Shown piece by piece: positions 1 to 37,959 of a stretch of DNA of 64,000 bases (positions are counted from its first letter, which is position 1; each line of letters begins with the position of its first letter). This DNA comes from Nannocystaceae bacterium ST9. GTDB taxonomy: Bacteria > Myxococcota_A > Polyangia > Nannocystales > Nannocystaceae. A model generated the notes under the pieces. The model ran no database searches. It was not told the origin of the DNA and worked only from the letters and a program-made list of their open reading frames with translations. The stretch lies in contig JBLWFJ010000001.1 in the NCBI GenBank assembly GCA_048320885.1, forward strand, positions 1,669,642 through 1,733,641. The letters are read 5' to 3'. The translations under genes were made by a program, and so were the position numbers.

Positions 1-3000
1 CATCATCGGTATGTGGCGGCCGATCCGTCCCGTCGACCTCTCCACTCGTGCTCTTCTTGGACCCCGGCGCGCCGTCGGTGTCCCCGGTGTGCCCGAGCCC
101 GAGCACGTCGACCTGCACGAGCGGGTTCGCGCAGTACGCATACAGATTGACCTCGCTGCCGCGGTACCCGATCGGATCACTCTGAAGGTACCTCCCGAGC
201 CCCGGATCATAATACCGGTAACGATTGTAATGCAACCCCGTGTCGGCGTCGTAGTAGTGACCCGGCCAGCGCAGGGCATACTCGATCGTCGAGCCCGGGT
301 GCACGTCGACGCCCCCGTAGGGATCGATCCGCTGGGCCCACCAGACGACCGTGCCGTGCTCGTCCTCGATGTGCAGCGGCATGCCGATGCCGTTGCCGAA
401 CACGTGGAAGAGCCGGCCCTGCTCGGGCGCGGCGTCGCGGCTCTGGTAGTCGACGAAGGCGATCGGGGCGAGCGCGTCGTGGCCGGCGTAGACGTAGATC
501 CGCAGCTTTCCGTCGGGGCCCTGCTCGGCGGCCAGGCGGTCGCCGTCCCACCAGAACTCGCGCCGACGATCGCCGCGCTGCGTCCACAGTCGCCGGCCGA
601 TCGCGTCGTAGCCGGCTCGCCAGAGCGCGCCGCCGACCTCGACCCGGGTCAGCATGTCGAAGCTGTCGTAGTGGTAACGCGTGACGGCGCCTTCGCGGTG
701 GCGGCGAGCGGCGAGCCGGTCGCGGGCGTCGTACTCGTAGAGTTCGTGGGCGGTGGCCAGCGCGAGGTTGTTGGGGCCGACCTCGAGCCGCGAGACGCCG
801 GGCTTGTGGACCAGGTTGCCGGCGGCGTCGTGCTCGTAGGCAAGCCGCTCGCCGCTCGGCGTGAGCGCTTCGATCAGGCGATGGGCCGCGTCGACGCGAA
901 AGCTGGTCGTGCCGCGGGCCGAGTCGGACTCGCGCAGCAGGTCGCCCTCGGGCGAGTAGACGCAGCGCGTGCCCCAGGCGATCCGCTGGCCGGTGGCGTC
1001 GCGCTTGCTGGTCATGCGGGCCTCGAGTCGGCCCTCGTGATCGTACTGCTGCCAGTCGAGCGTGCCGTTGCCGAGCTCGCACACGACCACGCCCTCGTGG
1101 GTATGACGGATCCGAATCACGGCCCCGTTGGGCGCGACGATCCGATGCTGATCGCGGCCGCGCTCGTGGACGATCTCGAAGCGATCGAGCACGCGGGTCC
1201 GCTCGCGTCCGCCCTGCTCGTGGCGGCGCTCGAGCCCCTCGCCGTCGCGGCGATCGATCGCCCGCCGACCGTGCAGGTCGTAGGCCATGCGAACCTCGTG
1301 GGCCTCGGTCGAGGCCTCGACGATCCGCCCGCGCGCGTCGTAGTCGAAGCGATGCTCGCCGCCGCTGGCCAGCTCGCGCCGACGGACGAAGTGGTTGGCG
1401 TGAAACTCGGCGTTGCGGAAGATCAGCCGACCCTCGCCGTCGTACTTGCCGACGAAGTGATCGCCGAGGTCGTACTCGTAGACATCGCGCAGTCGATCGC
1501 CGCGCCAGACCTGGGTCAGCCGCTCGCCCTTGTCGTAGCCCCAGTGGGTCGTGTTGCCGAGCGGGTCGCTCAGCGCGATCATCTGCTCGATCGTCGACCA
1601 GTGATGGCGAGTGACGTGGCCGAGCGGGTCGATGCGCTGGCCGATCAGGTTCCACGAGGTCGTCGTCCAGGCCCGAACCTGGCCGTCGCGATCGGCTTGC
1701 GCGATCAGGTTGCCGGCGGCGTCGTACTGCCAGCGGCGCGTGCGTCCGAGCGCGTCGACCTCGAGCAGCTTGCGACCGAGCGGATCGAGCTCGACGCGCG
1801 GCTCGACCGGCGTCCGTGCGCCGCGGCGACGAAAGAGCGTGTGGGCGAAGTCCTGCAGGTCGCTCGGGATCTCGTCGAGCAGCAGGCCGCTCGCGCCGAA
1901 CATCGCGGCGTCGTCGGGCTCGATCGCCCCGCCGAAGTTGCGGCCGAGCGCAGTGGTGGCCAGGTCGCGGGCGAAGGGATCGCCGAGCTTGGCCTGCTCG
2001 AGTTCGGGCGGGTGCAGGTAGCCGAAGCGATCGCGGCGGGCGTAGTGGGCATCGTCGGCGTCGTAGAGCCACGCGAGCTCGCGGCCACCGGGATCGATCT
2101 CGCGCAGGATTCGGCCCTCGCCGTCGCGCTCGCGGATCGTCGCGGCGCCCTGGGGATTGACGATCTTGCCGATGAACCCGTCCTTGTCGTAGTGAAATTC
2201 CCAGACGGCCTCGTTGCCCTCGCTGTAGCGGGTGTAGCCGTCGTCGGGGAAATACTCGACGGCGGCCTGCCACAGGCCGTCTTGCCCGCTCGCCCACACG
2301 CAGCGGCCCTGCTCGTCGTAGCGAAACGAATAGGCGTAATTGCGAGGATCGATCTGTCGGGTCCAGAAATGCTTGGCATCGTATTCGTAGGCCCACTCGC
2401 CGCCGGCGGCGTCGCGGACCCGCACGAGCTCACCGATCGGCGAATAGGTCGCGGCGAACCGAACGATCGAAGGATTGCCGCGTTCGACGATCGCGGTGAT
2501 CCGGCCGGCGGCGTCGTGCTGAAAGTCGTAGATCCTGCGGTCGCGGGCCTGCTCGCGCGACGCGTCGACGCAGGTGGTCAGCCGGCCGCGATCGTCGTAT
2601 TCGAACGCGAGCTCGCGGGTCTCGCTGTGCAGGCCGATCAAGGGGAGCGGGCCCGCGAACATGTCGCCGGCGAAGATCATGGTCGGCTCGCCGCGGGTCG
2701 CGAGCTCGTAGCGATCACGATGGATCCGCGTCAATCGGTAGCCGTGCGCCCGACACAGCGACTCGCCGCGCGCGAACTTGGGAAATTCGAATGCGACGCC
2801 GTCCCAATCGACGAATGTGGTCTGGTGGAGGCGAACGTCGAGCGTGCGCTGATGGAGGTGGCGAAACCCGAACCCGAGCGGGCCGTCGACGTGCGCCCGC
2901 GCGGTCGTGTAGTGCCGCTTCCATGTGAAGAGCCCGGGCGAGACGAAGTCGGTGAAGCGATCGAAATTCTCGCCGGTGACCAGATAGATCGGGTGCGAGC

Positions 3001-3919
3001 CATTGCCACAATGCGCGTTGGCCCGCCGCGACGAGCGGAGCTTCTTGGCCGCGTTGGCCAGCGCCTTGAGCCCCTTCATCAGGGCGCCGACGACCATGTC
3101 GCCGATCGGTGGGCAGGGGAATCCGCCGATCAGCACGGTCGGCGTGGGCGGCCCGACCAGCGCGCCCATGCCCGGCGGGATCCCGGGGTCCTTGCCGCAG
3201 AGCAGCTTGATCGCGAGCACGGCCGCGTCGGCGGCGGCCTGGGCCGCGGCCGCGGCCTGACCGGTGGCGATCGCCCCGGCCGCGCCCGCGATCACGCCCG
3301 CGCCACCCATCGCGATCGCGAAGGGCCCCATCGAGGTCGGATTGCAGTGCTTGGTGAGATCGAGGATCCGCGCGGCCCGGGCCCCGCCGACGAACACGTT
3401 GCTCGAGCCGGTGAACACCTCGAAGGGCGGCGCGAGCGAGCCACAAGTGACCGAGATCCCGATGTCGCCGGCGCGGGCGAGCGGTAGGCCGCAGCCGAGC
3501 ACCGAGATCGCCCCGGAGCCGACCAGCATGCCGATGCTCGGCAGGGGCACCGGCGGCGCGGGTGGGATCAGCGAAGGCGGATGCGCGTGGGCGTGCGGCA
3601 TGCCGACATGCATGCCCAGCAAGGTGATCGCCGGCATCGCGGGGAAGAGCGCGGCGATCGGGGCGGTGAAGCCCGCGAACGCCTGATCGATGATCTGCTG
3701 GGGCGCGCCGACGACCCCGAGCACGCCGCCGAGCCCCTGCGCGACCCAGCCGGCCGCGCCCTGCTCGGGCGGCGGCGCGCTCATGAAGGGCGCGGCGGTC
3801 GAGTTGATCGCGTCGATCGCCGAGTCGAGTCCCGGCGATCCGGTCGGCGCGAGCAGGGGCGCCGGAGGGTTCTGCGGGCGCGTCGAGGGGCGCGGGCGAT
3901 CCGAGGCGGCGTTGGTCAT
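1..3919 (-). CDS. PAAR-like / RHS (YD-repeat) polymorphic toxin protein, partial. The 3' end, the C-terminal toxin tip and its stop codon lie beyond position 1.
   Basis: The minus-strand frame is open from an ATG at 3919..3917 to the window edge. It is not in the ORF track because there is no in-window stop. The N-terminus reads MTNAASDRP... with a PAAR-like block (GMPHAHAHP...LPLARAGDIGISVTCGSL...LTKHC). Then comes the RHS N-region (GSHPIYLVTGENFDRFTDF), many YD repeats (EYDxxG.L, AYEYD) and the RHS core end ...GHYYDADTGLHYNRYRYYDPGLGRYLQSDPIGYRGSEVNLYAYCANPLVQVDVLGL at about nt 250..100. A variable tail begins after that (GHTGDTDGAPG...). The plus ORF 11..3487 is its antisense artefact. Confidence 0.85.
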   Translation of the reverse strand, partial: MTNAASDRPRPSTRPQNPPAPLLAPTGSPGLDSAIDAINSTAAPFMSAPPPEQGAAGWVAQGLGGVLGVVGAPQQIIDQAFAGFTAPIAALFPAMPAITLLGMHVGMPHAHAHPPSLIPPAPPVPLPSIGMLVGSGAISVLGCGLPLARAGDIGISVTCGSLAPPFEVFTGSSNVFVGGARAARILDLTKHCNPTSMGPFAIAMGGAGVIAGAAGAIATGQAAAAAQAAADAAVLAIKLLCGKDPGIPPGMGALVGPPTPTVLIGGFPCPPIGDMVVGALMKGLKALANAAKKLRSSRRANAHCGNGSHPIYLVTGENFDRFTDFVSPGLFTWKRHYTTARAHVDGPLGFGFRHLHQRTLDVRLHQTTFVDWDGVAFEFPKFARGESLCRAHGYRLTRIHRDRYELATRGEPTMIFAGDMFAGPLPLIGLHSETRELAFEYDDRGRLTTCVDASREQARDRRIYDFQHDAAGRITAIVERGNPSIVRFAATYSPIGELVRVRDAAGGEWAYEYDAKHFWTRQIDPRNYAYSFRYDEQGRCVWASGQDGLWQAAVEYFPDDGYTRYSEGNEAVWEFHYDKDGFIGKIVNPQGAATIRERDGEGRILREIDPGGRELAWLYDADDAHYARRDRFGYLHPPELEQAKLGDPFARDLATTALGRNFGGAIEPDDAAMFGASGLLLDEIPSDLQDFAHTLFRRRGARTPVEPRVELDPLGRKLLEVDALGRTRRWQYDAAGNLIAQADRDGQVRAWTTTSWNLIGQRIDPLGHVTRHHWSTIEQMIALSDPLGNTTHWGYDKGERLTQVWRGDRLRDVYEYDLGDHFVGKYDGEGRLIFRNAEFHANHFVRRRELASGGEHRFDYDARGRIVEASTEAHEVRMAYDLHGRRAIDRRDGEGLERRHEQGGRERTRVLDRFEIVHERGRDQHRIVAPNGAVIRIRHTHEGVVVCELGNGTLDWQQYDHEGRLEARMTSKRDATGQRIAWGTRCVYSPEGDLLRESDSARGTTSFRVDAAHRLIEALTPSGERLAYEHDAAGNLVHKPGVSRLEVGPNNLALATAHELYEYDARDRLAARRHREGAVTRYHYDSFDMLTRVEVGGALWRAGYDAIGRRLWTQRGDRRREFWWDGDRLAAEQGPDGKLRIYVYAGHDALAPIAFVDYQSRDAAPEQGRLFHVFGNGIGMPLHIEDEHGTVVWWAQRIDPYGGVDVHPGSTIEYALRWPGHYYDADTGLHYNRYRYYDPGLGRYLQSDPIGYRGSEVNLYAYCANPLVQVDVLGLGHTGDTDGAPGSKKSTSGEVDGTDRPPHTDD

Positions 3920-5154
3920 CGCGGCGCTCCTCGGCGAGCTTCGAGTTGCACGACCATGGCTCGCTCGCGCTCGAACTCCTGCTGCTCGCCACGCATGCCG
4001 GCCTGCCCGTAGAGCGCGGCCAGCTTGCCGGCGACCGACTTCCAGCAGTGCAGGTGCTGGTAGGTCCGGCACAGCTCGCGGGCGCGCGCATAGCTGGCCT
4101 GCGCGTCGGCGTGCCTGGCCTGCGCGAGCTGGGCGTCGCCGCGCTTCTCGTGCAGCTCGCAGTACGCGAAGGGGTTGAGCACGCCGGCCGCGACCTTGCT
4201 GCCCGAGTCGGCGTAGCTCTCGGCCTCGGCGTGCTGGCCGAGCGCCATGCAGACGTCGGTGATCGACGAGAGCGAGGTCAGCAAGACCGGCAGGCTCGCA
4301 CTGGCCAGCGCGAGCGCGACCGCCTGTTGCAGCCGCTGCTTGGCCATGACCGAGTCGCCGGCCGCGTGCAGCGTGTCGCCAGCGCCCTGCAGACACAGCG
4401 CCTGCAAGCCGGGCTGGCGCTCGCGCTCGTAGTAGTCGTGCAGCGCGGCGTACTTGTCGAGCGCGTCGGCGTGGCGTTTGTACGAGAAGTCGATCGCGGC
4501 CAGCTGCAAGAGGCAGAGCATGCGCTCGGGCACCGGCAGGCTGCGGTCGGCCGCGTCGAGCGAGAGCGAGTCGGTCAGCGCGGGCGTCGAGAAGTCGACC
4601 TCGTGGAGCAGCACGTGCTCGGCCGGCCACGAGCGCAGCGCGGGCCGCAGCAGCGGGCGCGCGAGGTCGTCCCAGGCGATCAAGCGCAGCGGGGCCATCC
4701 AGGCCGGAACCTCGGGGTGCGGGACCACGCCGGCGATCAACGCGGCGTAGGCCTCGAGGTCGCGGCACTCGAGCGGGAGCAGGCCGACGACGATCCGGTA
4801 CTCGTCGGGATCGGGCAGCAGGCGGGGCAGGAATTGCAGCAACTCGGCGAGCCGCGACGCGGGCGGACGACGAGGATCACTCAGCTCGAGCGGCAGCGCG
4901 GGCACGGGTCGCTCGGCGGCGTCGAGCTGAAGCCGGACGCTCTCGACCAGCGCGTCGATCCACGCGCCCGGGCTGGTGAAGGGCTGATGAAAGGCCGCGA
5001 TCAGGTGGCTCGGCAGCGTCTGCTCGAGCGACTGCAAGAACTTCAGGACATAGGCGAGATCGTCGGGTCGGGCCCCGATCACCAACATCGGAAATTCGTC
5101 TTGCTGAGCAAATTCGTCGAGCGCAGCTCTGAGCTGATCGAACTTCCGCTTCAT
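3916..5154 (-). CDS. Hypothetical cytoplasmic protein (412 aa) with a C-terminal TPR-like helical region. Its stop overlaps the RHS start (ATGA), so it may be an adaptor or chaperone.
   Basis: Track ORF 3916..5154 (-) has protein-like composition and no signal peptide. Its TGA at 3918..3916 overlaps the RHS ATG at 3919..3917, which suggests translational coupling. Confidence 0.7.
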   Translation of the reverse strand: MKRKFDQLRAALDEFAQQDEFPMLVIGARPDDLAYVLKFLQSLEQTLPSHLIAAFHQPFTSPGAWIDALVESVRLQLDAAERPVPALPLELSDPRRPPASRLAELLQFLPRLLPDPDEYRIVVGLLPLECRDLEAYAALIAGVVPHPEVPAWMAPLRLIAWDDLARPLLRPALRSWPAEHVLLHEVDFSTPALTDSLSLDAADRSLPVPERMLCLLQLAAIDFSYKRHADALDKYAALHDYYERERQPGLQALCLQGAGDTLHAAGDSVMAKQRLQQAVALALASASLPVLLTSLSSITDVCMALGQHAEAESYADSGSKVAAGVLNPFAYCELHEKRGDAQLAQARHADAQASYARARELCRTYQHLHCWKSVAGKLAALYGQAGMRGEQQEFERERAMVVQLEARRGAPR

Positions 5155-5172
5155 CGTCGACGAATGATCGTA

Positions 5173-6504
5173 TCACTCGCCGGCGATCTTGGGATTGATC
5201 GCTTCGGCCGCCGATCGCAATTCGGCGGCGCGCGGCTCGTCGCCCGACTTGGCGTAGACCTCCGCGGCGGCCCAGAACAGGTCGGCTCGCTTGGCCTTGG
5301 TCGCGAGGGCTTCGTCGATCACCGATTTTGCACCGACGACGTCACCGACCCCGAGCCGCGCCTGGGCCAGGTCTCGCTTGGCCTCGAGGTTGGGTCGGAG
5401 CCGATGGTTGGCCTCGGCCAGCTCGAGTGCCCGGCTGGCCGGCCCGAAGCTCAGGAAGTGGCCGAGCGCGTGGCCGTAGCTGGCCTCGGGAAACTGGATC
5501 AGCTCGGCTTCGAAGCGCTCGCTCGAACGATCGATCCACTGCTTGGCCCCGGCTTCGTCGCCGCGGGCCTGGGCGAGCTCGGCCAGCGCGTCCATGAACT
5601 CGCCCTTGTCGGTGCGCGCGACGATCGACTCGTAGAGCTCCGTCGCCTGGCTGGTCCGACCGGTCAGCACGCAAATCTCGGCGATGTGCTCGTCGAGCAA
5701 CCACCAGCCCGGGAGCAGCTCGGCGCCCTCGCGGTAGTGCTCGAACGCGTCGTCGTAGCGGCCACGATCGAGGTCCATCAGACCGAGCTGGAGATGGATC
5801 CACGCGCGGGCCTCGGGCCGCTCGCTCGCCGGTGGCCGGCTCGAGTCGTCGCCGACGATCGTCGCGAGTGCGTCGCGGTAGTGGGCCTCGGCGGCCTCGT
5901 AGTCGCCGGTCTGCCACAGCCACAGGGCCTGGCGCGAGAGCGTGGTCAAGTTGCGATCGAGCTCGAGCGCCTTGGCGATGTGCTTGCCCGCGGTCTCGTA
6001 GTCGCCGCGCTGCATGGCCAGATCGCCGCGCATGCCGGTGATCACCGCCTGCGTGGGTTCGTCGACCAGGATCGCCGCGGCCATGCGCTCGAGGTCGGGC
6101 TCGACCCGATCGACGCGGTGCATCGACAAGTTGAGCGCGGCGCGAGTCAGCACCGGACCCGCGCCCTCGGGTGCGCGTGCGAACGACTCGACCAACACCT
6201 GCTCGGCCTTGGCGTAGTCGCCGTAGTCGCCGCTCAGGCGCGCACGCAGCAGGTAGAGCCCGGCGAGCTTCTCGAGCACCATCCACGAAGTCGCCTGCTC
6301 GTCGGCGCGCGTGCGGGTCGCGGCGATCTGCTCGTCGAGATCGGCGAGCGCGTTGACGAAGGGCGCCTTGCTGCTCGCGAACTCGAGCGGCGCGGGCTCG
6401 CTGGACGCGGCCGGCTTGTCGGCGACCGGGCTGCTGGAGCGACAGCCCGAGCTCTCGATGAAGACGAGGGCGAGGGCGAAAGCGGGGGCGAGTCGGCGGA
6501 GCAT
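5173..6504 (-). CDS. TPR-repeat lipoprotein (443 aa).
   Basis: The N-terminus MLRRLAPAFALALVFIESSGC carries a lipobox. Repeated A/L/Y-rich helical TPR-like units run throughout. It sits 18 nt upstream of the 3916..5154 gene on the same strand. Confidence 0.75.
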   Translation of the reverse strand: MLRRLAPAFALALVFIESSGCRSSSPVADKPAASSEPAPLEFASSKAPFVNALADLDEQIAATRTRADEQATSWMVLEKLAGLYLLRARLSGDYGDYAKAEQVLVESFARAPEGAGPVLTRAALNLSMHRVDRVEPDLERMAAAILVDEPTQAVITGMRGDLAMQRGDYETAGKHIAKALELDRNLTTLSRQALWLWQTGDYEAAEAHYRDALATIVGDDSSRPPASERPEARAWIHLQLGLMDLDRGRYDDAFEHYREGAELLPGWWLLDEHIAEICVLTGRTSQATELYESIVARTDKGEFMDALAELAQARGDEAGAKQWIDRSSERFEAELIQFPEASYGHALGHFLSFGPASRALELAEANHRLRPNLEAKRDLAQARLGVGDVVGAKSVIDEALATKAKRADLFWAAAEVYAKSGDEPRAAELRSAAEAINPKIAGE

Positions 6505-6602
6505 CGGTGCGGCGGCGCGAGGTGGTGAAAGATCGTAGCGAAGTTCATGAAATGCGAAAGCTGCCCACGCCGAGGCGTGGGCAGCTTCGCATCGACGATC
6601 GC

Positions 6603-7313
6603 TCAGTGCGGATCGGCGAGGTAGGGGAAGTCGGCCAGGAATTCCTTGTCGTTGGCCGGCGGGTTGAGGGGCAGGCTGGCGAAGAGCAGCGGATCCTGAC
6701 CCATCACGCTGAGATCGAGCATCACCACCGCGAGCGTGACGTCGATGACCGGATCGGGCAGGGCGCGGCCGTTCGGGAAGCCGGGCTCTCCGGTCAGATC
6801 GATCTTGAGGGTGTCGGGGATCACCAGGGGTCCGGCCTGCGCCAGACAGTCGTTCGGGGCGCAGGGGACCGCTCCGAGGCCCATCAGATCGTCATCGAGC
6901 GCCATGTGAAGCGCCGTCACGTTCGCGCCGATCTCGTCGACGAAGTCGAGGTTGGCGTCGTCGCTCGGGTTGGCGGCGTTGTACTCGTCCTTCGAGGTGA
7001 TCACCGCGGTCGCGACCGCGGGCATGCCCATCCGGTCGACCCGCGTGTAGGCCTCGGGCGGATCCGCGGCGAACACGAAGGGATCCGGCGGATCGCCGGT
7101 CGTCGAGTCGGTGGTCTCCGTGGTGTCGGCCGTGTCGGACGAGGTCGTGTCGTCGGCCGTCGTGGTGTCGTCGGCCGTCGTGGTGTCGCCGGTCGTGTCG
7201 GCGGTCGTGTCGCCGATCTCGTCTTCACCTTCGTCGCTGCCACCGGGGCAGCCGGTGAGCAGCAGGGGCAGGGCAAGGCCGAGCAGGAGCGTGGAAGTCT
7301 GGAAGTTCTTCAT
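6603..7313 (-). CDS. Lipoprotein resembling the C-terminal half of the DUF4331 family (236 aa).
   Basis: The real start is an internal ATG of track ORF 6603..8147, read MKNFQTSTLLLGLALPLLLTGC (lipobox). The upstream part of that ORF is R-rich junk. A D/T-rich acidic linker follows. Motifs VDRMGMPAV and GFPNGRALPDPVIDV are recalled DUF4331 hallmarks. Confidence 0.6.
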   Translation of the reverse strand: MKNFQTSTLLLGLALPLLLTGCPGGSDEGEDEIGDTTADTTGDTTTADDTTTADDTTSSDTADTTETTDSTTGDPPDPFVFAADPPEAYTRVDRMGMPAVATAVITSKDEYNAANPSDDANLDFVDEIGANVTALHMALDDDLMGLGAVPCAPNDCLAQAGPLVIPDTLKIDLTGEPGFPNGRALPDPVIDVTLAVVMLDLSVMGQDPLLFASLPLNPPANDKEFLADFPYLADPH

Positions 7314-7324
7314 GGTCGTCCTCC

Positions 7325-7939
7325 TCACTTCCGGCCCGTGGTCGCCCAGAGTTGGATGTCTTCCGTGCCGACGGAGGCCACGTCCATCTCGACGACGATC
7401 GAGGTCACATTGGTGCCCGCGAAGTGGTCGTTGTTCGAGTCGAACATGACCGTGCCGGTCATCAGCGTGGCCTTGAAGCCATCGAGGTCGAAGAAGAAGG
7501 GATCGTCGCGCAGACCCGCGAACACCCGCAGGCCACCGCCCGCGTCGATCGTGGTCTCGACCGCACCCTCGACCAGCGCGTCGCCGCCGGGCAGATCGAC
7601 GACCTGCACGCCCCACTCGCCGGCGCCGTTCTGGCCGAAGCGAACCCAGGTGTCGAGATCGGGCTGGTTGTCGCCGTCGTTGTCGATGTGGATGCCGTAG
7701 AGCATGTCGGCGTCGTAGGTCGCGGGCGTTCCCGGCTCCTGCAAGCCGGCGAAGTCGACCACGACGACGAGCTTGCCGTCGGCCGTCCAGGCGTAGACGT
7801 CGGTGAGGTCGCCGGCCAGATCGGCCATGGTCCCGGGTGCTTCGGCGTGGTCCGCCGCGAACACTCCGGAGGTGCCGAGGGCGAGGGCTGCCACCGCACT
7901 CACTCCAAGGGTCAACGTAATCAGTCGTGTCTTTCGCAT
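7325..7939 (-). CDS. Secreted protein resembling the N-terminal half of the DUF4331 family.
   Basis: Track ORF 7325..7975 has a Sec signal, MRKTRLITLTLGVSAVAALALGTSGVFA|ADHAEAP, and ADHAEAP resembles the DUF4331 N-terminal SSHREAP-type motif. The motif RDDPFFFDLDGF is present. The gene ends 11 nt before the next gene. An alternative start is at 7975. Confidence 0.6.
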   Translation of the reverse strand: MRKTRLITLTLGVSAVAALALGTSGVFAADHAEAPGTMADLAGDLTDVYAWTADGKLVVVVDFAGLQEPGTPATYDADMLYGIHIDNDGDNQPDLDTWVRFGQNGAGEWGVQVVDLPGGDALVEGAVETTIDAGGGLRVFAGLRDDPFFFDLDGFKATLMTGTVMFDSNNDHFAGTNVTSIVVEMDVASVGTEDIQLWATTGRK

Positions 7940-8115
7940 GGTGTCGTCTCTCGTGCTCGGTCGTCGCCGAAGCACGTCGAGAAGTTACCTGACCCGTGCA
8001 GCCCGCGCGGACAAATTCGCCGCTTTCGCGAACTCTTCTCCAGGTCATGGACCAACCAACCCTGGAGCTTCCATCAGGCTCGCGATCAGCCTCGCAGTCG
8101 ATCGCGTGCCCTCGA

Positions 8116-10428
8116 TCACTCTTCGCGATCGCGATCGGGTCCCCCACCCCAACGACCCGACTCGGTGGCGATCCGTTCGGCCACCCCGACCGCGGTTCGG
8201 TACTGCGGAGGCCCCCAGGTTTCTCGCTGCCAACCCTGCTCTGCGGCGGCGTGCGAGGTCAGGTAGGGATCATAGAGATGCGGGCGAGCGAGCGCGCACA
8301 GATCCGCGCGACCCGAGACGATGATCGTGTTGACGTGATCCCAGCCTTGGATGTTGCCGACCGCCATCGTCGCGATGTCGAGCGGATGCAGCTCGTTGCG
8401 GATGCGATCCGAGAAGGGCGTCTGAAACATCCGCCCGTAGATCGGCCGCGCGTCGGGGTGAGTCTGTCCGGCCGAGACGTCGATCAGATCGCAGCCCTGC
8501 GCGTGGAACATCCGGGCGACCTCGACCGCGTGCTCGGGCTGCAGCCCCTCGGGCAACCAGTCGGTCGCCGAGATCCGCACCGACATCGGCTTGCGGCTCG
8601 GCCAGACCTCGCGCACCGCCGCCCAGACCTCGAGCGGAAATCGCATGCGCTTGGTCAGCGAGCCGCCGTAGTCGTCCGAGCGCTGGTTGCTGAGCGGCGA
8701 GATGAAGCTCGAGAGCAGGTAGCCGTGGGCGCAGTGCAGCTCGAGCATGTCGAAGCCGGCCGCGTCGGCGTGCCGAGCCGCCTCGACGAACTGCCGACGG
8801 ATCGCGGCGAGGTCGGCGAGCGAGAGCTCGCGAGGCACCTGCGAGCTCGCGTCCCAGGCGATCGGCGAGGGAGCGACCAGGGGCCAGGCCTGATCGGCCG
8901 GCAGCGGCTTGCCGCCCTTCCACGGCAGATCGGTGGCGCCCTTGCGGCCGGCGTGGGCGAGCTGGATGCCGATCTTGGCCTGGCTGTTGGCGTGGACGAA
9001 GTCGACGATCCGCCGCCACGCGTCGGCGTGGGTCGAGCTCCACATGCCCGTGCAGCCGGGCGTGATCCGAGCCTCGGGCGAGACATCGGTCATCTCGCAC
9101 ATGACCAGGCCCGCGCCGCCGACCGCCCGACTGCCGACGTGGACCATGTGCCAGTCGTTGGGCACGCCGTCGATCGCCGAGTACTGGCACATCGGGCTGA
9201 CGACCACGCGGTTGGCCAGCTCGAGCTCGCGCAGGCGGAAGGGCTGGAACATCGGCGGCGGAACCGGTCGATCGGGCGCGACCGGCCGACCGACGTGCGC
9301 GGCGAACCAGCGATCGAGCTGCTCGACGTAGCCGGGGTCGCGCAGGCGGAGGTTCTCGTGGGTGACCCGCTTGCTGCGAGTCATCATGCTGACCGTGAAC
9401 TGCTCGGGATCGAAGTGCTTGTAGCGGCTGATGTCCTCGAACCACTCTTGGCTGACCTTGGCCGCGCGCTGGAGCTTGGCGACGTCGAGCCGGCGGCGCT
9501 GCTCGTAGACCGCGATGCTCTCGCGAGCCGGTCGCGCGCGGTCTTCGGTCAGCGCGGCGACCAGGGCGATCGCGTCTTCCATGGCCAGCTTGGTGCCCGA
9601 GCCGATCGAGAAGTGGGCGGTGTGCGAGGCGTCGCCGAGCAGCACGATGTTGTCGTGCTGCCAGCTCGCGCAGCGCAGCTCGGGGAACGAGATCCACTTC
9701 GAGCGGTTGCCGAGCAGCTTGGCCCCGGCCAGCTCGGGCGCGAACAGCTGCTCGCAGTAGGCGATGCTCGCGGCCTCGTCGGCCTGATCGAGCCCGGCGT
9801 TGCGCCACGACTGCTCGTCGCACTCGACGATGAAGGTGCTGGTGTCGGCGTCGAACTGGTAGGCGTGAACCTGAAAGAGCCCGTGCTGGTTCTCGCGGAT
9901 GATGAAGGTGAAGGTCGACCAGAGCTTGTTGCTGCCCAGCCAGATGTACTTGGCCTTGCCGGCGACGATCTCGGGCCGAAAGCTGGCCTCGTGGCGGGCG
10001 CGGATCTGCGAGTTGACCCCGTCGGCCGCGATGATCACGTCGCAGTCGGCGAAGCGATCGAGGCTGGTCAGGTCGACGTCGTACTCGAGGCGCACGCCGA
10101 GCTCGCGGGCGCGGGCGCCGAGCAGATCGAGCAGCGCGACCCGGCGCAGGCCGACGAAGTCGTGCCCGCCCGAGGTGATGGTCTTGCCCTTGAAGTGGAC
10201 GTCGATCGCCTCCCAGCGAGCGAAGCGATCGGCGATCGCCCGGTAGCTCTCGGCGTCGGCGTCGGCGAAGTGGGCGATGGTCGCCTCCGAGAACACCACG
10301 CCGAACCCCCAGGTCACGCCCTCGGGGTTGCGCTCGACCACGGTGATGTCGGCGTCGGGCCGAGCCTTCTTGAGGAGAATCGCGCTGTAGAGCCCCGCTG
10401 GGCCGCCGCCGACGATGCCGACTCGCAT
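8116..10428 (-). CDS. Bifunctional FAD-dependent monooxygenase / Old-Yellow-Enzyme-type NADH:flavin oxidoreductase (salicylyl-CoA 5-hydroxylase/oxidoreductase-like fusion, 770 aa).
   Basis: The N-terminus [14 protein letters not shown] is a GxGxxG FAD fold, with DG/GD motifs of UbiH-type hydroxylases. The C-terminal half carries the OYE TIM-barrel signature [26 protein letters not shown]. Confidence 0.85.
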
Positions 10429-10505: not shown

Positions 10506-11534
10506 TCACGGACAGACCGCGCCGCAGTCGTTGACGGCCTCGCCCGCACACAGGCCGTCCCACGAGTTGTTGCAGCACCAGGGATCGAGCGCGCACACGC
10601 AGGCCTGGACCGAGGGGACCTCGCAGCCGATCCCGCCCCACGCGACGCAACAGTTCCCGCTCGACGAGAAGCTGCAGTTGGCCGTGTCGTAGGACCCGCA
10701 GTTGCCCGCGCAGGTCAGGTTGCCCTGATCGAAGCCTTGGCTCACACAGGTCTGGCCGCCGAGGTTGTTGCCGTCGCACACCTCGCCCGGCTCGATCACG
10801 TTGTTGCCACACGAGTAGTTGACGCAGTTGACCGCGTTGTAGCCGAGGCAGCCGGCCGCGCAGGCGAGCGTGCCGGCGTCGTATCCCTGGCTCACGCAAG
10901 TCTGGCCATTGAGATTGTTGGCGTCGCACACCTCGCTGCCTTCGATGACCCCGTTGCCACACACGTAGTCACTGCAGCCGGTGCTGTCGAAGCCCGAGCA
11001 CAGCCCGTTGCAAGCCAGGGTGCCGAGATCGAAGCCCTGCGTCACGCAGGTCTGGCCGTCGAGGTCGGCCCCGTCGCAGACCTCGGCCCCGTCGATCTGA
11101 CCGTTGCCGCAGGTGTCGCTCGTGCAGGCCGCGGTGTCGAAGGTGCGGCAGTCGACCGCGCAGCCGAGCGTGCCGCCGTCGAAGCCCTGCGTCATGCAGG
11201 TCTCGCCGGCGAGGTCGTCGGGCTCGCAGACCTCGTCGCCGGTGATCATCCCGTCGCCGCACACGTCGACGCCGCCCGTCTCGGTCGTCGGGTCGTCGGT
11301 CGTCGAGGTCGAGGTCGACTCGTCCGCGCTCGGGTCGTCGGTCGTCGAGGTCGGTTCGTCCGTCGTCGACTCGCTGCCCGACTCGCTGCCGATCTCGTCT
11401 TCGCTCTCGTCGCTGATCGTCGTGAACGTGGTCGTGAAGGTCGTCGTCCCCTCGTCGGTCGCCCCCGAAGCACAGCCGGCCATCACCACGAACGAGATCG
11501 ATGCCAAGGACGATGCGAGTTTGCGATGGAGCAT
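10506..11534 (-). CDS. Cysteine-rich repeat lipoprotein (342 aa).
   Basis: It has an MAGC lipobox and an acidic T/S/D/E-rich linker. About five tandem units of roughly 45 aa follow the pattern CGNGxIExGEVCDxxNLxGQTC(V/M)xQG(F/Y)DxGTLxC, with a Cys-rich C-terminus. Confidence 0.75.
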   Translation of the reverse strand: MLHRKLASSLASISFVVMAGCASGATDEGTTTFTTTFTTISDESEDEIGSESGSESTTDEPTSTTDDPSADESTSTSTTDDPTTETGGVDVCGDGMITGDEVCEPDDLAGETCMTQGFDGGTLGCAVDCRTFDTAACTSDTCGNGQIDGAEVCDGADLDGQTCVTQGFDLGTLACNGLCSGFDSTGCSDYVCGNGVIEGSEVCDANNLNGQTCVSQGYDAGTLACAAGCLGYNAVNCVNYSCGNNVIEPGEVCDGNNLGGQTCVSQGFDQGNLTCAGNCGSYDTANCSFSSSGNCCVAWGGIGCEVPSVQACVCALDPWCCNNSWDGLCAGEAVNDCGAVCP

Positions 11535-11774
11535 GGGATCCTCTGCGGCCGACGCGACGCTCGTCCATCCTAGAGTCGGGCGTCACGCCACCGCAACCGA
11601 AAGGGCGGCCCGCGGGCTGCTACCCGAGCGCCGAGTTTCGATGCGTGGAGGTTGCCCCTCGCTCCTCGCGGTTCTCGCGGTTTTCCCCACGAGCCCTTGG
11701 GGCGCTGCTAAATCGAGTTTTGTGCGACGAGCGCGGCCCGTCGAGATTACGCGCGCATTCCGCAATTCACTGTC

Positions 11775-12845
11775 ATGACCATGCATCGAAATCTTTCTCC
11801 TCAACTCCTCATGTTGGTGTGCGCCGGTGTTCTGGCGACGGCGTGCACCGACGACACCATCAACGGCGACGAAGTCGGCGACAGCGAGACCGACACCGGC
11901 TCGACGGACGAATCGAGCTCGAGCTCGACCACCACCTCGACCACCGACGAGTCGACCACCGACGAATCGACCACCGCCGACGAGTCGACCACCGACGAAT
12001 CGACCACCGAAGAGTCGACCACCGCCGACGAGTCGACCACCGCCGACGAGTCGACCACCGAGCCCACGACCACCGACGAGTCGACCACGAGCGCGGGTGT
12101 GTGCGGCGACGGGATGCTCGACCCCGACGAAGAGTGCGACGACGGCAACGACGTCGACACCGACGAGTGTCCGACGACCTGCGTGCCGGCGGTGTGCGGT
12201 GACGGCTTCGTGCTCGAGGGCAGCGAGGAGTGCGACGACGGCAACGACGTCGACGACGACGAGTGCGCCAACGACTGCACCGTGCCCGCCAACGACTTCT
12301 TGATCGAGCTGGCCAATCCGGCCGTGGCCGGGGCGATCGTCGACGACGGCTACAACGGCAACCTGAACTCGATGACCTGCGCGTCGCTCGACGTGGTCGA
12401 CGAGGGCACGGTCGTCGAGGTCACCGCGGTGTTCGGCATCACTCACACCTTCGTGGGCGATCTGACCGCCAAGTTGATCAGCCCGAACGACACCGTCGTG
12501 ACCATGTTCAGCCGGCCCGGGCTGGTCGACATGGGCGACAACGGCACGGGCTGCTGTGGCGAGAGCGCGAACATCTCGGGCATGTCGCCGCTGAGCTTCG
12601 CCGACGCGTTCGTGGACAACCCCGAGAACATGGGCGGGCCGCTGACCACCGATCAGGTCGTCTGCCTCGCCGATCTGATCTGCGACTACCAGACCAACCC
12701 GGGCTCGGCCGCGCCCGGGACCATGGCCGACTTCGCCGGCGAGAGCGTGACCGGCAGCTGGACCTTCTGCGTGGCCGACGGTGGCGGCGGAGACACGGGC
12801 CAGCTCGCGGGCATCGGGATCAGCATCTTGGCCAGCCCGCCCTGA
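11775..12845 (+). CDS. Lipoprotein with two Myxococcus cysteine-rich repeats and a C-terminal proprotein-convertase-like P-domain (356 aa).
   Basis: It has a LATAC lipobox and DESTT-type acidic repeats. Two units match the TIGR02232-like repeat ([23 protein letters not shown] and [24 protein letters not shown]). A P-domain-like motif reads [22 protein letters not shown]. Confidence 0.8.
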
Positions 12846-28806: not shown

Positions 28807-30572
28807 GCGGGCGAGGACCACGGATCGAGCGGATCGGGCGGATCGAGTGGCTCGCCGGCCTCGCGCTGCTCGGCTGCCTGCCGACCACCCACGAGCGCGA
28901 GCCGCTCGACGACGCACCGTCGCTCGTCGAGCGGCCGCGCTGCCCCGAAGGTTCGGCGAGCGTGGCCAGCTTCGACGCGCACGTGATCGGCGAGCTCGCC
29001 CAAGTCGAGGTCGTTCGGACCTTCGAGAATCACGGCGATCGGCCGATCACGATCGCCGACGAGTTCGCGCTGCGCGGCTGGACGCTCGTCGATCATGCGA
29101 TCGAGATCGCCGACCTGCGCATGCGCGACCTCGTCGTCACCCGCGAGCAGGCCTACGCGAGCCAAGCCGCCCCCGCAGTGGTCGAGGTCGTGCCGCGAGC
29201 GACCGACGCCTTCGCGCGCCGCTTCGAATTGCTGCCGGGCGAGTCGGGCCGGGTCGAGCTCCTGCTCGCGCGCGAGCTCGACGTCGAAGCCGCTCGCACC
29301 ACCCTGACGCTGCCGACCCGCGCGAGCGGCTGCGAGCTCGACGTCATGGTCACGCTCGAGAGCACGTTCACGGCGAGCTCGCCGACCCACGCGATCACGA
29401 GCGTGTCGACCGAGCGAGCCACCCACCTCGCCCTCGCCCAGCCGGAGTCGGACGATCGCGACTTCGAACTGACCTGGCGGCGAGCCGACGCCGACGATGT
29501 CCACGCCACGCTCTGGCTGGTCCCCGACGGCCACTTCACGCTGATCGTCGAGCCCCCGACCCACGCCGATCCGGCGCAGGCGATCGCCCGCGAGTTGATC
29601 TGGCTCGAAGGCGACGACGCTTCGCCCGACTCCGCCGAGGCCCTGGCCCGGGCGACCACGCTCGCGGGCCTGCGAGCCGACGACGCGATGGTCGTGATCC
29701 CGAGCGATCACGTGCGCCACGTCGAGTTCGAACGCGCCCTCGCCCACCACCCCGAGCGCCTGCACATGCTCGTACTCGGCCTCGACGTGATGCCCCCGAG
29801 CAAGCCGCTCGCCGACACGCGCGTGTTCGGCCTCGCCGACTCCGACCCGGCCTCGCCGACGCGCCTGCGCCTGCTCGACGCGCTGCCGCGGCGGAGTCGG
29901 GGCGCCGGCGTGGTTCGCCGCGAGGGCGAGCTCGACCCGATGCTCGCCGAGCGCTTCGCTCGACGGATCGCCTCGCCCCTGCTCGTCGATCTCGAGCTCG
30001 ACTGGGGCGACGCGCAGGTCGAATTCCTGACCCTCGCTCGCTTGCCGGATCTCTTCGCGGAGCACTCGCTCGTGCTGCATGGACGCGTTCGCGGACCGCT
30101 CGGATCGCTCGTGCTGCATGGACGCGATCGCGTGGGTCGGCGGGCGATCACGATCGAGATCCGGCCCACGCAGACGACCGACTCGCGCGGGCTCGCGACG
30201 ATCACGAACCTCGAGCGGATCGACGCGCTCTTCGGGGTGAATCGCGAGCGCCTGCCCTGCTTCCCCGACGGCCGCGAGGACCAGGCGCTGGCGCTCGCGC
30301 TCGCGCTGCAACAGCCGATCGCTACGACCTGCGTGGTCGCGGTGATCGAGCAGGCCGGCGCGCCGACGCGGCTCGATCCGATCCAGCCGCGCTGCGACAT
30401 CGAGCAGGCGAGCTCGATCGAGTCGCGCGAGCCCTTCCGCGACTTGGACAAGCTCGGCGGTCTGTTGCCGATCGGACCCCTGCCGCTCTCCAGCTTGCTC
30501 GGGGCGACTCAGATCCGACCCAGCGCCTCGCGCAGCTCGGCGAGCGCGGGTCGACGCCCTGGATTCGAGTGA
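28803..30572 (+). CDS. Degenerate VIT-like paralog lipoprotein (about 589 aa), GTGA-coupled to the preceding gene.
   Basis: GTG at 28803 overlaps the TGA at 28804..28806 in the frame of track ORF 27210..30572. The product starts MSGRGPRIERIGRIEWLAGLALLGC (lipobox). FDAHVIGELAQVEVVRTFENHGDRPITIADEFAL parallels the VIT block of the upstream protein. No MIDAS motif is present. Confidence 0.65.
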   Translation: MSGRGPRIERIGRIEWLAGLALLGCLPTTHEREPLDDAPSLVERPRCPEGSASVASFDAHVIGELAQVEVVRTFENHGDRPITIADEFALRGWTLVDHAIEIADLRMRDLVVTREQAYASQAAPAVVEVVPRATDAFARRFELLPGESGRVELLLARELDVEAARTTLTLPTRASGCELDVMVTLESTFTASSPTHAITSVSTERATHLALAQPESDDRDFELTWRRADADDVHATLWLVPDGHFTLIVEPPTHADPAQAIARELIWLEGDDASPDSAEALARATTLAGLRADDAMVVIPSDHVRHVEFERALAHHPERLHMLVLGLDVMPPSKPLADTRVFGLADSDPASPTRLRLLDALPRRSRGAGVVRREGELDPMLAERFARRIASPLLVDLELDWGDAQVEFLTLARLPDLFAEHSLVLHGRVRGPLGSLVLHGRDRVGRRAITIEIRPTQTTDSRGLATITNLERIDALFGVNRERLPCFPDGREDQALALALALQQPIATTCVVAVIEQAGAPTRLDPIQPRCDIEQASSIESREPFRDLDKLGGLLPIGPLPLSSLLGATQIRPSASRSSASAGRRPGFE

Positions 30573-31972
30573 AGGCCCGCGACCGCGAGCGAGCGCAGCG
30601 GCTCCGGGACGCCCTCGCACTCGGGCGCGGCCGAGAGCATGGCTCGCACCCGCTCGGCGAGCGTGGGCCGAGCGAAGGGGTGCTTGCCCGTCGACCACCA
30701 GACCATCGTCGCGCTCAGCGAGAATACGTCGCTCGCGGGCGTGGGCGCCGACCCCATCAGCAGCTCGGGAGCGAGATAGATGTCGTCGAAGGGCGGCTCC
30801 TGGCCCTCGACCCGCGGACCGAGCGGCCAAGTCAGACGGCGCAGGAGCTCGCCGCGAGGGACCAGCGTCACGCGACCGAGCGCATCGACGAGGGTCAGCT
30901 CGGGGCGCAGCCCGACCACGCACTCGCCACCGGCGTGAACTCGCTCGAGGATGCACGCGGTCGCGTCCGCGAGCCTGGCCACCTCGACGAGCGGCGCAGG
31001 CGAGCGCGCGTCGCTGCGGGCCAGCTTGGGCAGCGCCTCGACGAGAACGTTGGCGAGGCCTTCGTTCGTTTCGACGCGTCCGAGCCAGAGCATCGGCGCG
31101 ACCCCTTCGTAGTCGAGAGCGAGCCGATCCGCGGGCGGCAGCGGCTCGCCCGACAAGACCAAGAGCGTGGTCACCAGCACACGTTTGCCGCTCGCCAGAT
31201 CACTGCCGATCTCCAGCGAGCGACCGCGGCTGCCCGCGTGGCGCTTGCGAACGAAGTAGGTGGTGCCGGGAACCGAGTATCCATGTGCGCTGGCATGAAT
31301 TCGCCGCTCGAAGTCGGCCGGGATCAGTCCAATCGCCTCGAAGCGACGCAGCTGGTTCGACGAGGCATTGGTGAGGCTGGCCGGATACTCGTCGAGGTAC
31401 TCGGCCACCCGCGCCAGCCACCACGCGTCGTCCCCCTGCGACCAATCCTCGCTGGCGGCGCGAAGCATGAATCGCAACAGGCGCTTCTCGTGCGAGTTAC
31501 CACTGTCGAGATAAGCCTCGATGAGCTCGGCCTCGTGGTCGAGCCGTCGCCACTCGTGCATGGCCTTGCTGAACATCACGTTCGAGATCGGCGCATCGAC
31601 AAATTCTTCTTCGACCAGATACACGAGTCGACGCAGGAGCTGGCGGACTCGGGCGGCGGGCTCGGCCTGATCGTCGAGCAAGGGCTCGGCGAAGCCGGGG
31701 CCGAGCGCGTCGAGTTGGTTCGGGTCGCCTTCGCCGGCCTCGATCCGCGCGCGCAAGGCCAGCCACAGCCCGAGGTGCTCGAGCTCGGGGAGCTCCGCGA
31801 TCAGGGGCTCGAGCGCGGTCGGACCGAGCGACACGAGCGCTCGCAGGGACCGCGCCGCACCGACGACACCGAGGTTGCTGCTCGACTTGCCGTAGCCCTC
31901 GGTGAGCAAGAGATGACGAAGCCGATCGATCAGCGACCGCCAGCGCGGCGAACTCGGGAGCGTGTCCATCAT
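30509..31972 (-). CDS. Protein-kinase-like protein, probably a pseudokinase (487 aa), ATGA-coupled downstream of the giant DUF4157 protein.
   Basis: The C-terminal half keeps kinase subdomain VIII/IX-like residues ([36 protein letters not shown]). The catalytic HRD position reads GLRPE and the DFG position reads ALG. The start MM at 31972..31967 overlaps the upstream TGA. Confidence 0.65.
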
Positions 31973-34900
31973 GGATTCGTTCGACCCTGCGAACTCATGG
32001 CAGGTGTGATCACGGGAATCAAGCAGACCTGCTCGTCCGCGTTCAGCGAGATGCGGGTGTTGCCGGCGCTGTGCTCACCGTTGCGAAGCGCGTTCGTGTA
32101 GATGTCCTCCCAGCGCGACATGTTGTGCGGCGAGATGCGATCACCGAGGAATTCCTGCAAATGCGTGGACTCGATCGGATGGTGTCGCACGATCCGAGGC
32201 GGATCGCCGGAGATGACGACCGCGAGCATCGGCGTACTGTCGCGGTGCGTGGTCGACACATCGGCCTGGAGCGTGAGCGCACCACGTCCGCTCTCGGGAT
32301 CACCGAGTCGAGTCTGAAGCAGGAAATTGGCCATCGATTCGGGATTCCCCCACGCCGGTAACGAATAGTTGCCCTCCAGCGTCGTTCCGAGCTGCCGCGA
32401 CGCGGCGTTGCCCTCGGTCTGCATCCAACGGCCGCCGCCCTTGACCTCGCGCAAGACCAGGGCCTCGCCCGGCCGATAGAACTCGAAGTCCACCCGCCGA
32501 CCCACCTCGTAGGCGGTCAGCCGGCTGCCGTCGGGGTACTCGATCGAGACTCGGTTCTTGCCCGCGACGATCACTCCGCCCGTGGTCCCCAAGCTCTGAT
32601 GCATCTGCCGAAACGCGGCCCACTCGTGGTCGCCTTTGAGGATGCCTTCCGCCTGCGATCCGGCCCGGAGTCGGTCGATGACCTGAGGGTCGCCTCCGCC
32701 GGTGCCGGAGCGGACCTCCGTGCCGCCGTGGGGCCGCACCGGCATGTCGACCGGAGGAGGCCGCAATCCGGCGATCGGATTCAGGCCCATGACCTGGCCG
32801 AGATAAGGGTGAGGCATCCCATGGATCGGGCCCTGCCAGAGCACCTCGCCCGAAGGACTGCGGATTACGATGTCGGCCCGATACGCAGGAAGCTCGCCGA
32901 AATAACCTTCGATCCGCGCGCCATGAATCTCGATCTCGACTCGGGGTCGCCCGCTCCCGGACACGGCATTGCCGATTCGTCCGTTGCCGAGCACCTCGAA
33001 GGGCGCATGCACGCTGTGCGTCGACAGTCCATTTTGCGCGACATAGGCGAGATCCTGCGCCGAGGGCAAGAGCGCGGTGCGATTGGCCTCGTCGGCCAAC
33101 GCCTGATGGATCGACATCTCCGATTGTGGTCCTTCGCCACCGTGCAATCGATTGGTCGTCGGATGACTATGGGAAACGGCACGAACACCTGGGAAATGGC
33201 CCCAATCGACCGCGCCATGCTGGCCTCGAATGACCACGAATTCGCCGGTCGGAAGCTGCCCTATCCCCCATTCCACCGATGTCGGCCGGAAGCCCTCGGG
33301 TAGATCACCCACGCCGAGCGAGCGCAGGGCTCCGGGGTGATCTTGCATGATCGATTGCATCACCGCGCGCGCTTCGGCCTCGGTCGCCAAGGGGCGACCC
33401 ACGGCGACGTTGGTGGCCGTGTTCAGCTCGGCGGCGTCGTGCGAGGTCCGCATCACCCGAGTCTCGGGCGGCTCCTCACCCGGCGGGCGCGTCCTGGTTC
33501 CCTCCTCTTCGCCGGTCCGTGTTCGAGTCTCGGTTTCCTCGCCCGGCGGCCGTGTCGGCGCTCCACCCTCTTCCTCGCCCGGCGGCCGCGTCCGCGGCGG
33601 CCCTTCGTCCTCGCCAGGCCCCGGCGGGCGGACACGCGGCGTGGTCCCGTCTCCCGCGGGAGCCCCACCGAAGCGACGATTCACCGCGCCCTCGATGCGG
33701 GTCTCGAGCCGCGATCCGATCCGCCCCGGATCGAAGCGACGGAAGCGATCCAGAGCGGTTCGCGGCGCCTCGCTCGGCGGCGCGTGGGTGCCCCCGCGAC
33801 GCGAGGCTCGGGCCGAGGTGCCGGCCGAGGCGGCGGCCGAGAAGGCGCGGCTGAGATCGAATTTCTCGCCGCTCAACCACGAGGTCAGGCCTTCGAGCCC
33901 GAAGCCGACCAGCGCTCCGCCGGCGATCTGCGTCACGGCGGCGCGCGTGCCCCCGGCTCCGCCGGTGGGCACGTTGGGTGTGCCGGGATGCGGCGCCGCG
34001 GGGTGCGGTGCGTCGGGCGTGCCCGCGTGCGGCGTGGCGCTCGGGGCATCCGCGTGGGCGGTCGGATGCGGGGCGTCGGGCGTGCCCGCGTGGGCGGTCG
34101 GATGCGGGGCGTCGGGCGTGCCCACGTGAGCGGTCGGGTGTGGGGCGTCCGGCGTGCCCACGCGCGGCCGCCCGCCGCCTTGCGGACGGAAGCTGACACT
34201 CGACATCGCGCCGGCCATCAAGAAGCCCTGCCAGTTGAACTTCTGACCGAACGCGACGTAGCCGATCGTCTGCGTGATGCCTTCGGAGACCAGGTCGGCG
34301 CCGACGTTGATCGCGAACTGCACGACGTAGCGACCGGCGAGCGCCGACGCGCCGCTGGCCGCACCCGCGGCGAAGCCCAGGCCACCCCCGATCGCGCCAC
34401 CGATCGCGCCCATGATCATCGCCTGCGCGAGCCCGGTATGCCACGCCTCGCCCGACGCCCAATTGTTGATGATCTGGATCAGCCCGGCACTGACCGCGCC
34501 GACCAGGGCGCCGACCAGGATCACGGCGAACAGGCTCGCACCGGCGCCCAGGGTCACGATGCTGATCACGGCGGCCGCGATCACGACCAAGACCACCAGC
34601 ACGATCGCGACCACGCTCTTCCAGGCCGGCTGCTCCTTGCCGGCCGCCTTCCAGGCCTCGCTCGCGACCCGGCGATCGAGCCCGCCGAGCTGACCACGGA
34701 GATCCTGATCGAGCTGGCCGAGCGAGCTCGCGATCGCAGCGTCGACGCGCGTGCCGATCGTCGCGAGCGCGCCCTCGAAGCCCTGCACGGCTCGCTGCAT
34801 GCTGGCCACGCCCTCGCTGCTGGCCTGCTGGGTCTGCTGGACGTGCTGCTGACCGAGCTGCTGGAAGGTCTGGCTGGCGCCGGCCTGCAGGGCCGCGAGC

Positions 34901-37953: not shown

Positions 37954-37959
37954 GGAGGT

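Follow-up and report, generated by a model that had tools for sequence, protein, structure and literature searches.

A candidate chaperone family coupled to PAAR-RHS toxins, and a separate DUF4331 module beside it, in Nannocystaceae bacterium ST9

In a 64-kb stretch of the genome of Nannocystaceae bacterium ST9, referred to here as the window, five co-directional minus-strand genes fill nucleotides (nt) 1-7975 (Table 1). In order of transcription, they encode two secreted proteins that each carry part of a DUF4331 domain (D1 and D2), a tetratricopeptide repeat (TPR) lipoprotein, a cytoplasmic accessory protein of 412 amino acids (aa), designated P412, and a PAAR-RHS toxin whose C-terminal end lies beyond position 1. 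A first-pass annotation of the DNA had described these genes and their features, which are confirmed by the reading frames and by Pfam and NCBIfam matches, and had proposed that all five might form a route for RHS trafficking. Comparison with related loci, labelled L001 and onwards, points instead to two independent modules that happen to be neighbors, and to P412 as a possible dedicated chaperone of the toxin.

Many of the open reading frames (ORFs) in the window are spurious, since its guanine-cytosine (GC) content is about 70%. The third-position GC content is 0.82-0.92 in the real minus-strand frames versus 0.46-0.74 in competing or antisense ORFs, and the long plus-strand ORFs at 11-3487 and 3946-6528 were rejected as genes because their third-position GC reaches only 0.71-0.73. 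From the DUF4331 pair to the RHS gene, the intergenic gaps are 11, 98, 18, and -4 nt. Scanning the gene set for promoters and terminators yielded no convincing terminator or sigma-70 promoter and was uninformative, and co-transcription of all five genes is possible.

The toxin gene is intact, as the first-pass annotation had assumed, and not a pseudogene. From the ATG at 3919, its frame runs through 1306 codons without a stop and is still open at position 2. The encoded fragment matches residues 1-1306 of P0121, a 1511-aa ST9 protein in NCBI, with 100% identity; the remaining 205 codons, including the tip, lie beyond position 1. The PAAR motif (aa 133-191) scores 29 bits when the whole fragment is searched and 38 bits when the N-terminus is searched by itself (cutoff 27), the RHS repeats match RHS_repeat at an expect value (E) of 3e-46, and PAAR (PF05488) is precomputed for nearly all toxin orthologues. 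The end of the RHS core had been placed near nt 100, in agreement with the motif DPIGYRGSEVNLYAYCANPLVQVDVLGL at toxin aa 1248-1275 (nt 178-95), and the core closes with ...NPLVQVDVLGL at aa 1275, a DPxGL-type boundary at which autocleavage before the toxin tip would be expected. The tip, which had been placed correctly outside the window, was recovered through P0121 as a YwqJ-like deaminase (PF14431, E 7.5e-11, in the 236 residues after ...DVLGL) carrying the HGE...PRCGNC zinc-deaminase signature.

In overall design, the toxin resembles PAAR-Rhs effectors of solved structure. Its best sequence matches in the PDB are RhsA of Pseudomonas protegens (7Q97), TseI (8H8A), Tre23 (7PQ5), and Tse15 (8UY4), with E values from 3e-50 to 1e-34, and it shares with them an N-terminal PAAR domain, a YD-repeat cage, an Rhs core cleavage boundary, and an exchangeable C-terminal toxin. 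Unlike these effectors, it possesses a distinct conserved N-terminal module of about 300 aa, in which hydrophobic Gly/Ala-rich segments lie on both sides of the PAAR domain, lacks an N-terminal prePAAR motif, and is partnered by the gene for P412 rather than by an Eag (DUF1795) gene. Judged by its domains, it is a classical and rather ordinary polymorphic toxin of a type VI secretion system (T6SS).

Orthologues of the toxin retain the N-terminus and core at 37-78% identity, the closest being that of L002, from a metagenome-assembled genome (MAG), with 78% identity over the 1306 aa encoded in the window. Their tips are far more diverse and include Ntox21, GH-E, WHH/Colicin-DNase, Endonuclease_NS_2, Ntox46, Peptidase_M91, an OTT_1508 deaminase, and others, amounting to more than 10 Pfam toxin families. 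The small gene directly downstream of the RHS gene in relatives encodes a pentapeptide, SUKH-3, DUF446, or SUFU protein, and the putative immunity gene of the L001 orthologue is of the pentapeptide type. The most conserved part of the toxin is aa 40-300 (window 3019-3802), with 70-95% identity within Myxococcota versus 47-76% for the core, which suggests a strong binding constraint on this region. For a polymorphic toxin, such stronger conservation of the N-terminal region with its PAAR domain, relative to the RHS cage, across families is unusual.

The gene upstream of the toxin encodes P412, which is annotated in ST9 as a hypothetical protein. Its stop codon overlaps the ATG of the RHS gene within an ATGA, so that the coupling reported in the first-pass annotation is borne out, as is the view that the protein falls outside the known adaptor families: none of 29 family members matches the profiles of DUF4123 (PF13503), DUF1795 (PF08786), or DUF2169 (PF09937) at E<=1, and no Eag gene adjoins the toxin. 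The only Pfam match of P412 itself is TPR_12, in the C-terminal half, and across the 29 members only TPR families are matched, with TPR_MalT in 21. A search of NCBIfam with P412 gave no match, and a profile search of the PDB returned TPR proteins only. By exhaustive profile search, the family comprises 259 clusters at 50% identity (E<=1e-30), nearly all of 400-435 aa.

A structure model of full-length P412 (mean predicted local distance difference test score, pLDDT, 93.6) likens the C-terminal half to peptide-binding TPR proteins, and the predicted N-terminal domain adopts the alpha/beta fold of P-loop NTPases and shows similarity to STAND/AAA+ proteins, among them MalT, Apaf-1, and NLRs. The Walker A motif GxxxxGK[ST] is absent from the beta1-alpha1 loop of all 29 sequences, where G-C-x-x-x-E is found in every case, and the Walker A pattern matches only by chance in the TPR half; P412 is therefore not classified as an NTPase. 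It contains no DNA-binding or other output domain, and no model in Pfam 2025 or NCBIfam 20 covers its N-terminal domain. A literature search found no description of a T6SS helper of TPR or AAA-like type that serves PAAR-Rhs proteins, and the P412 family appears to be previously undescribed.

Table 1. Features of the ST9 locus and its flank, in window coordinates, with the basis of each assignment
Feature	Position (nt)	Strand	Basis
PAAR-DUF6531-RHS toxin, codons 1-1306 of 1511	1..3919	-	Open frame, Pfam/NCBIfam, identity to P0121
PAAR domain of toxin (aa 133-191)	3347..3523	-	PF05488, 29-38 bits, cutoff 27
Gly/Ala-rich hydrophobic segment before PAAR (aa 54-108)	3596..3760	-	Kyte-Doolittle 19-residue means up to 1.6
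Gly/Ala-rich hydrophobic segment after PAAR (aa 195-245)	3185..3337	-	Kyte-Doolittle means up to 1.8
DUF6531 domain (aa 309-379), start of RHS shell	2783..2995	-	PF20148, E 5.8e-10
RHS-associated core (aa 1199-1275)	95..325	-	TIGR03696, E 5e-22
P412, 412-aa cytoplasmic accessory protein	3916..5154	-	Stop overlaps RHS start (ATGA)
Predicted Walker-A-less AAA+/STAND-like alpha/beta domain of P412 (aa 1-205); five TPRs follow at aa 206-412	4540..5154	-	
443-aa TPR (lipo)protein (DUF4331 module, third gene)	5173..6504	-	TPR Pfam matches
236-aa lipoprotein with C-terminal DUF4331 part (D2)	6603..7313	-	PF14224, E 6.8e-15
204-aa secreted protein with N-terminal DUF4331 part (D1)	7325..7939	-	PF14224, E 9.3e-26
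770-aa FAD_binding_3 + Oxidored_FMN oxidoreductase	8116..10428	-	Pfam; syntenic anchor

A scan of contigs located homologues of P412 in 11 GTDB genomes, many of these loci being truncated within the RHS gene, and homologues were found at five other sites. In all 13 loci with downstream sequence, the homologue directly precedes a PAAR gene, mostly with an overlap of 4 nt where gene coordinates were read. In 12 of these (L001-L004, L006, L009-L012, L013, L020, and L021), the PAAR gene is an orthologous PAAR-RHS gene; L013 belongs to the betaproteobacterium Eleftheria terrae. In the remaining locus, L014 of Myxococcus faecalis, the P412 homologue is ATGA-coupled to a stand-alone 344-aa PAAR protein, which is 58% identical to the N-terminus of the ST9 toxin, and a PAAR-less DUF6531-RHS protein is encoded behind a divergent VgrG gene. 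This pairing with a stand-alone PAAR protein indicates that P412 tracks the PAAR N-terminal module and not the RHS cage. The divergence of P412 also runs parallel to that of the toxin N-terminal module (Spearman 0.77, n=14, not corrected for phylogeny). On this evidence, P412 is best regarded as a genuine partner of the toxin, and its family extends across Myxococcota and into at least one betaproteobacterium. The idea that P412 confers immunity was rejected, since P412 is conserved while the toxin tips vary.

The genomic surroundings of this pair provide the link to secretion. VgrG is encoded in 10 related loci: directly upstream of the P412 homologue in L005, L007, L010, L011, L012, and L021, one gene away in L013 and L020, divergently in L014, and downstream in L001. 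The intervening gene encodes a protein of about 210 aa in L013 and a 670-aa DUF2169 protein in L020 (Polyangium aurulentum, 6973-8985), where the DUF2169 protein and the P412 homologue share one operon. TssF is present in L012. With VgrG in 10 loci and TssF and DUF2169 in one each, the P412-RHS system is linked to the T6SS in relatives, contrary to the earlier suggestion that it might be detached from canonical T6SS components. In the window and in L002, L006, and L009, no VgrG adjoins the pair, and on the visible side of the toxin the cassettes of ST9 and its closest MAG relative, L002, are vgrG-less outliers.

A conserved protein of about 205-218 aa, which belongs to no Pfam family, accompanies P412-RHS in Nannocystaceae and Eleftheria terrae at 42-61% identity (L001 16660-17304; L004 7207-7863; L002 8612-9229, minus strand; L013 6064-6696). 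In L002, its gene of about 205 codons is inverted and lies downstream. Only sub-threshold hints of a gp5/VgrG-type OB fold (Phage_base_V) and a DUF2345 beta-helix were obtained, and the protein may represent a further spike accessory.

The three genes upstream of P412 have a different distribution. The first-pass annotation had described D1 and D2 as one DUF4331 protein cut in two, and they do match different parts of the PF14224 profile, D1 with 91 bits and its best stretch at profile positions 146-235 of 421, and D2 with 56 bits and its best stretch at positions 364-421 (cutoff 27 for both). The cut is not a recent one; the two-gene form is widespread, and all 120 matches listed for D1 are short proteins, mostly of 200-215 aa. 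D1 has a Sec-type signal (...VFA/ADH), and its start, within window 7895-7975, may be GTG 7975 (216 aa), ATG 7939 (204 aa, which gives a credible signal peptide), or that of the NCBI call (189 aa). D2 has the lipobox LLTGC and a Thr/Asp-rich linker, and the N-terminus of the 443-aa TPR (lipo)protein reads ...FIESSGC. No relatives of the trio proteins were found among solved structures, and no paper containing 'DUF4331' was found in the literature.

Homologues of the TPR protein (49-74% identity) follow DUF4331 pairs in L002 and in L015-L019, and no RHS gene accompanies the trio in L015-L019. In L015-L018, from Nannocystis and metagenomic contigs, D1, D2, and a TPR protein of 446-457 aa are followed by ZapA and TyrRS. 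In L019, an oxidoreductase 89% identical to the product of window 8116-10428 precedes the trio in the same position as in ST9, and the trio is followed by a convergent methyltransferase gene, with neither P412 nor RHS present. The D2 gene of L019 is duplicated (7627-9140), the paralogues being 61% and 68% identical to the window protein. The synteny of L019 with the window in the absence of P412 and RHS indicates that the DUF4331 module is a chromosomal backbone element, and the independent conservation of the trio elsewhere indicates that the toxin cassette merely adjoins this backbone module in ST9 and L002. The first-pass annotation had supposed that the trio might serve the RHS protein; it adjoins P412-RHS only in ST9 and L002 and is missing from all other P412-RHS loci that were checked, among them loci whose upstream sequence extends over 4-10 kb. 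The trio is thus separate from the toxin in relatives, so the upstream genes are unlinked there, which the first-pass annotation itself had regarded as counting against its proposal. On the evidence of gene order, the five genes do not constitute a functional unit, and the trio is very probably a conserved envelope module separate from toxin trafficking.

Taken together, these observations are best explained by two modules lying head to tail on the minus strand, with P412 acting as a dedicated chaperone, a statement to which, as a whole, we assign a probability of about 0.6. Module A (nt 5154 to beyond position 1) would be a T6SS 'specialized effector' cassette in which the toxin is translationally coupled to P412, and Module B (5173-7975) would comprise D1, the D2 lipoprotein, and the TPR lipoprotein. 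The division into two modules, taken separately, is highly probable, and the chaperone role of P412 has about an even chance of being correct. In the proposed mechanism, P412, with its degenerate AAA+/STAND-like domain and its solenoid of five TPRs, would bind and stabilize the conserved N-terminal region of the toxin; the bound element would be the PAAR domain flanked by the Gly/Ala-rich hydrophobic helices; and P412 would keep this region soluble and competent for loading until PAAR caps the VgrG spike and the T6SS fires. The reading of P412 as a chaperone or loading factor follows from its being a coupled, always-present, cytoplasmic TPR protein that accompanies the PAAR domain where this is split off, is independent of the tip, and coexists with DUF2169.

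The comparison with established T6SS accessories shows partial similarities. Eag (DUF1795) chaperones serve prePAAR/transmembrane-domain effectors, as in EagT6-Tse6 and EagR1-RhsA (Ahmad et al. 2020, PMC7773334). Like P412, an Eag protein is encoded by a dedicated gene directly upstream of a PAAR effector with hydrophobic N-terminal segments, which it is proposed to shield before loading; P412, however, has no sequence or fold relation to Eag, being a 412-aa pseudo-AAA+ plus TPR protein. The DUF2169 and DUF4123 (Tap-1/TEC) adaptors resemble P412 in their position between vgrG and the effector and differ from it in the lack of homology. Since DUF2169 and a P412 homologue coexist in the Polyangium aurulentum operon, P412 is not simply a replacement for DUF2169. 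With the class II TPR chaperones of type III secretion system (T3SS) translocators (AcrH, IpgC, SycD/LcrH), the likeness is generic to TPR proteins, whereas the additional N-terminal alpha/beta domain and the different secretion system set P412 apart. It is a member of neither the Eag nor the T3SS family. In Myxococcus xanthus, the PAAR protein TsaE (MXAN_1813) is delivered by the T6SS and has a C-terminal extension specific to myxobacteria (reviewed in PMC10433427). As a lead only, TsaE may be a stand-alone PAAR protein of the type seen in M. faecalis, where the 344-aa protein is coupled to a P412 homologue.

Several observations weigh against this interpretation. No gene for VgrG, TssF, or a homologue of the accessory protein of about 210 aa is found in the 64-kb window. 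The DUF2169 adaptor beside P412 in L020 implies that the role of P412 may not be loading, and could be, for example, regulation or quality control. The prePAAR pattern AARxxDxxxH is absent from the toxin N-terminus, its sole match being at aa 182 inside the PAAR domain, and the hydrophobic segments (aa 54-108 and 195-245) are only borderline as membrane helices by the Kyte-Doolittle scale. The gap between the genes for P412 and the TPR lipoprotein, 18 nt in ST9 and 16 nt in L002, would permit co-transcription of Module A with Module B. Furthermore, a STAND-like domain combined with TPRs is an architecture also typical of signaling proteins.

Among the alternatives, the one that survives best, though it is improbable, is that P412 is a VgrG-effector adaptor comparable to DUF4123 (Tap/TEC) or DUF2169 proteins, bridging the PAAR-RHS toxin to the tail of a specific VgrG instead of chaperoning hydrophobic segments. 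In six loci, its gene is flanked directly by those for VgrG and the effector, which is where an adaptor is classically encoded, and TPR domains are protein-protein scaffolds. However, the slot next to VgrG is filled by other proteins besides P412, namely DUF2169 in L020 and the protein of about 210 aa in L013 and L004, and the P412-RHS pair persists in the four places without an adjacent VgrG. A bridge is, moreover, usually unnecessary for PAAR effectors, which attach directly to the tip of VgrG.

Two further alternatives carry little probability. One regards P412 as a STAND-like sensor or regulator, a pseudo-ATPase with a TPR sensor, that controls expression, activation, or firing of the toxin instead of aiding its secretion, as the modeled resemblance of its N-terminal domain to MalT, Apaf-1, and NLRs and the frequency of TPR_MalT matches might suggest. 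The absence of a Walker A motif and of any DNA-binding or output domain, together with the uniform length of about 420 aa, speaks against such a role, and the translational coupling and stoichiometric-looking co-occurrence with PAAR would fit a binding partner better. The other regards the ST9 RHS cassette as an orphan or inactive remnant that was displaced from a VgrG operon and is no longer delivered; the absence of VgrG from the 64 kb, the position of the cassette 18 nt behind an unrelated gene, and the inversion of the accessory gene downstream in the closest relative agree with this. Against it stand the intact 1511-aa frame, in which third-position GC is high and the 1306 aa encoded in the window are 78% identical to the orthologue in L002, and the intact P412; in addition, distant vgrG genes commonly serve auxiliary effector modules. 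The least tenable proposal, a T6SS-adaptor-independent route encoded by all five genes as one operon, with the two secreted DUF4331 proteins and the TPR lipoprotein helping the toxin to cross the envelope, is favored by the common strand, the short gaps with no predicted terminator between the genes, the same juxtaposition in L002, and the absence of VgrG from the window, but is already largely refuted by comparative context, namely the absence of the trio from the other P412-RHS loci, its solitary occurrence in L015-L019, one of them syntenic with the window, and the VgrG, TssF, and DUF2169 surroundings of related pairs, and is further opposed by a toxin that has a PAAR domain and lacks a signal peptide.

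Two other regions of the window deserve a brief mention. Just past the oxidoreductase gene, two divergently transcribed lipoprotein-like genes occupy 10506-12845, one encoding 342 aa with no Pfam match and the other encoding 356 aa in which DUF4215 and a proprotein-convertase P-domain are matched. The minus strand at 30509-38982 may hold a second toxin cassette, with a 1994-aa protein that has an eCIS_core/DUF4157 domain (31969-37953). A gene for a 340-aa pentapeptide-repeat protein (37960-38982) comes before it, and one for a 487-aa protein that weakly matches a kinase comes after it.

With P412 as the candidate chaperone, the useful result of this analysis is the helper rather than the toxin, which is of a standard kind: P412 is locked to one PAAR N-terminal module across two phyla. 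The adjacency in ST9 should not lead to the annotation of DUF4331/TPR modules as genes for toxin trafficking. There are roughly balanced odds that P412 founds a new family of T6SS effector accessories, in which a nucleotide-binding-dead AAA+/STAND-like domain and a TPR clamp would recognize a hydrophobic PAAR module, alongside VgrG adaptors such as DUF2169. Myxobacteria carry dozens of vgrG and PAAR genes. If P412 is a chaperone or loader, it would represent a fourth structural class of T6SS effector accessories, beside Eag/DUF1795, DUF4123, and DUF2169, and would offer a new genomic marker for effectors in myxobacteria.

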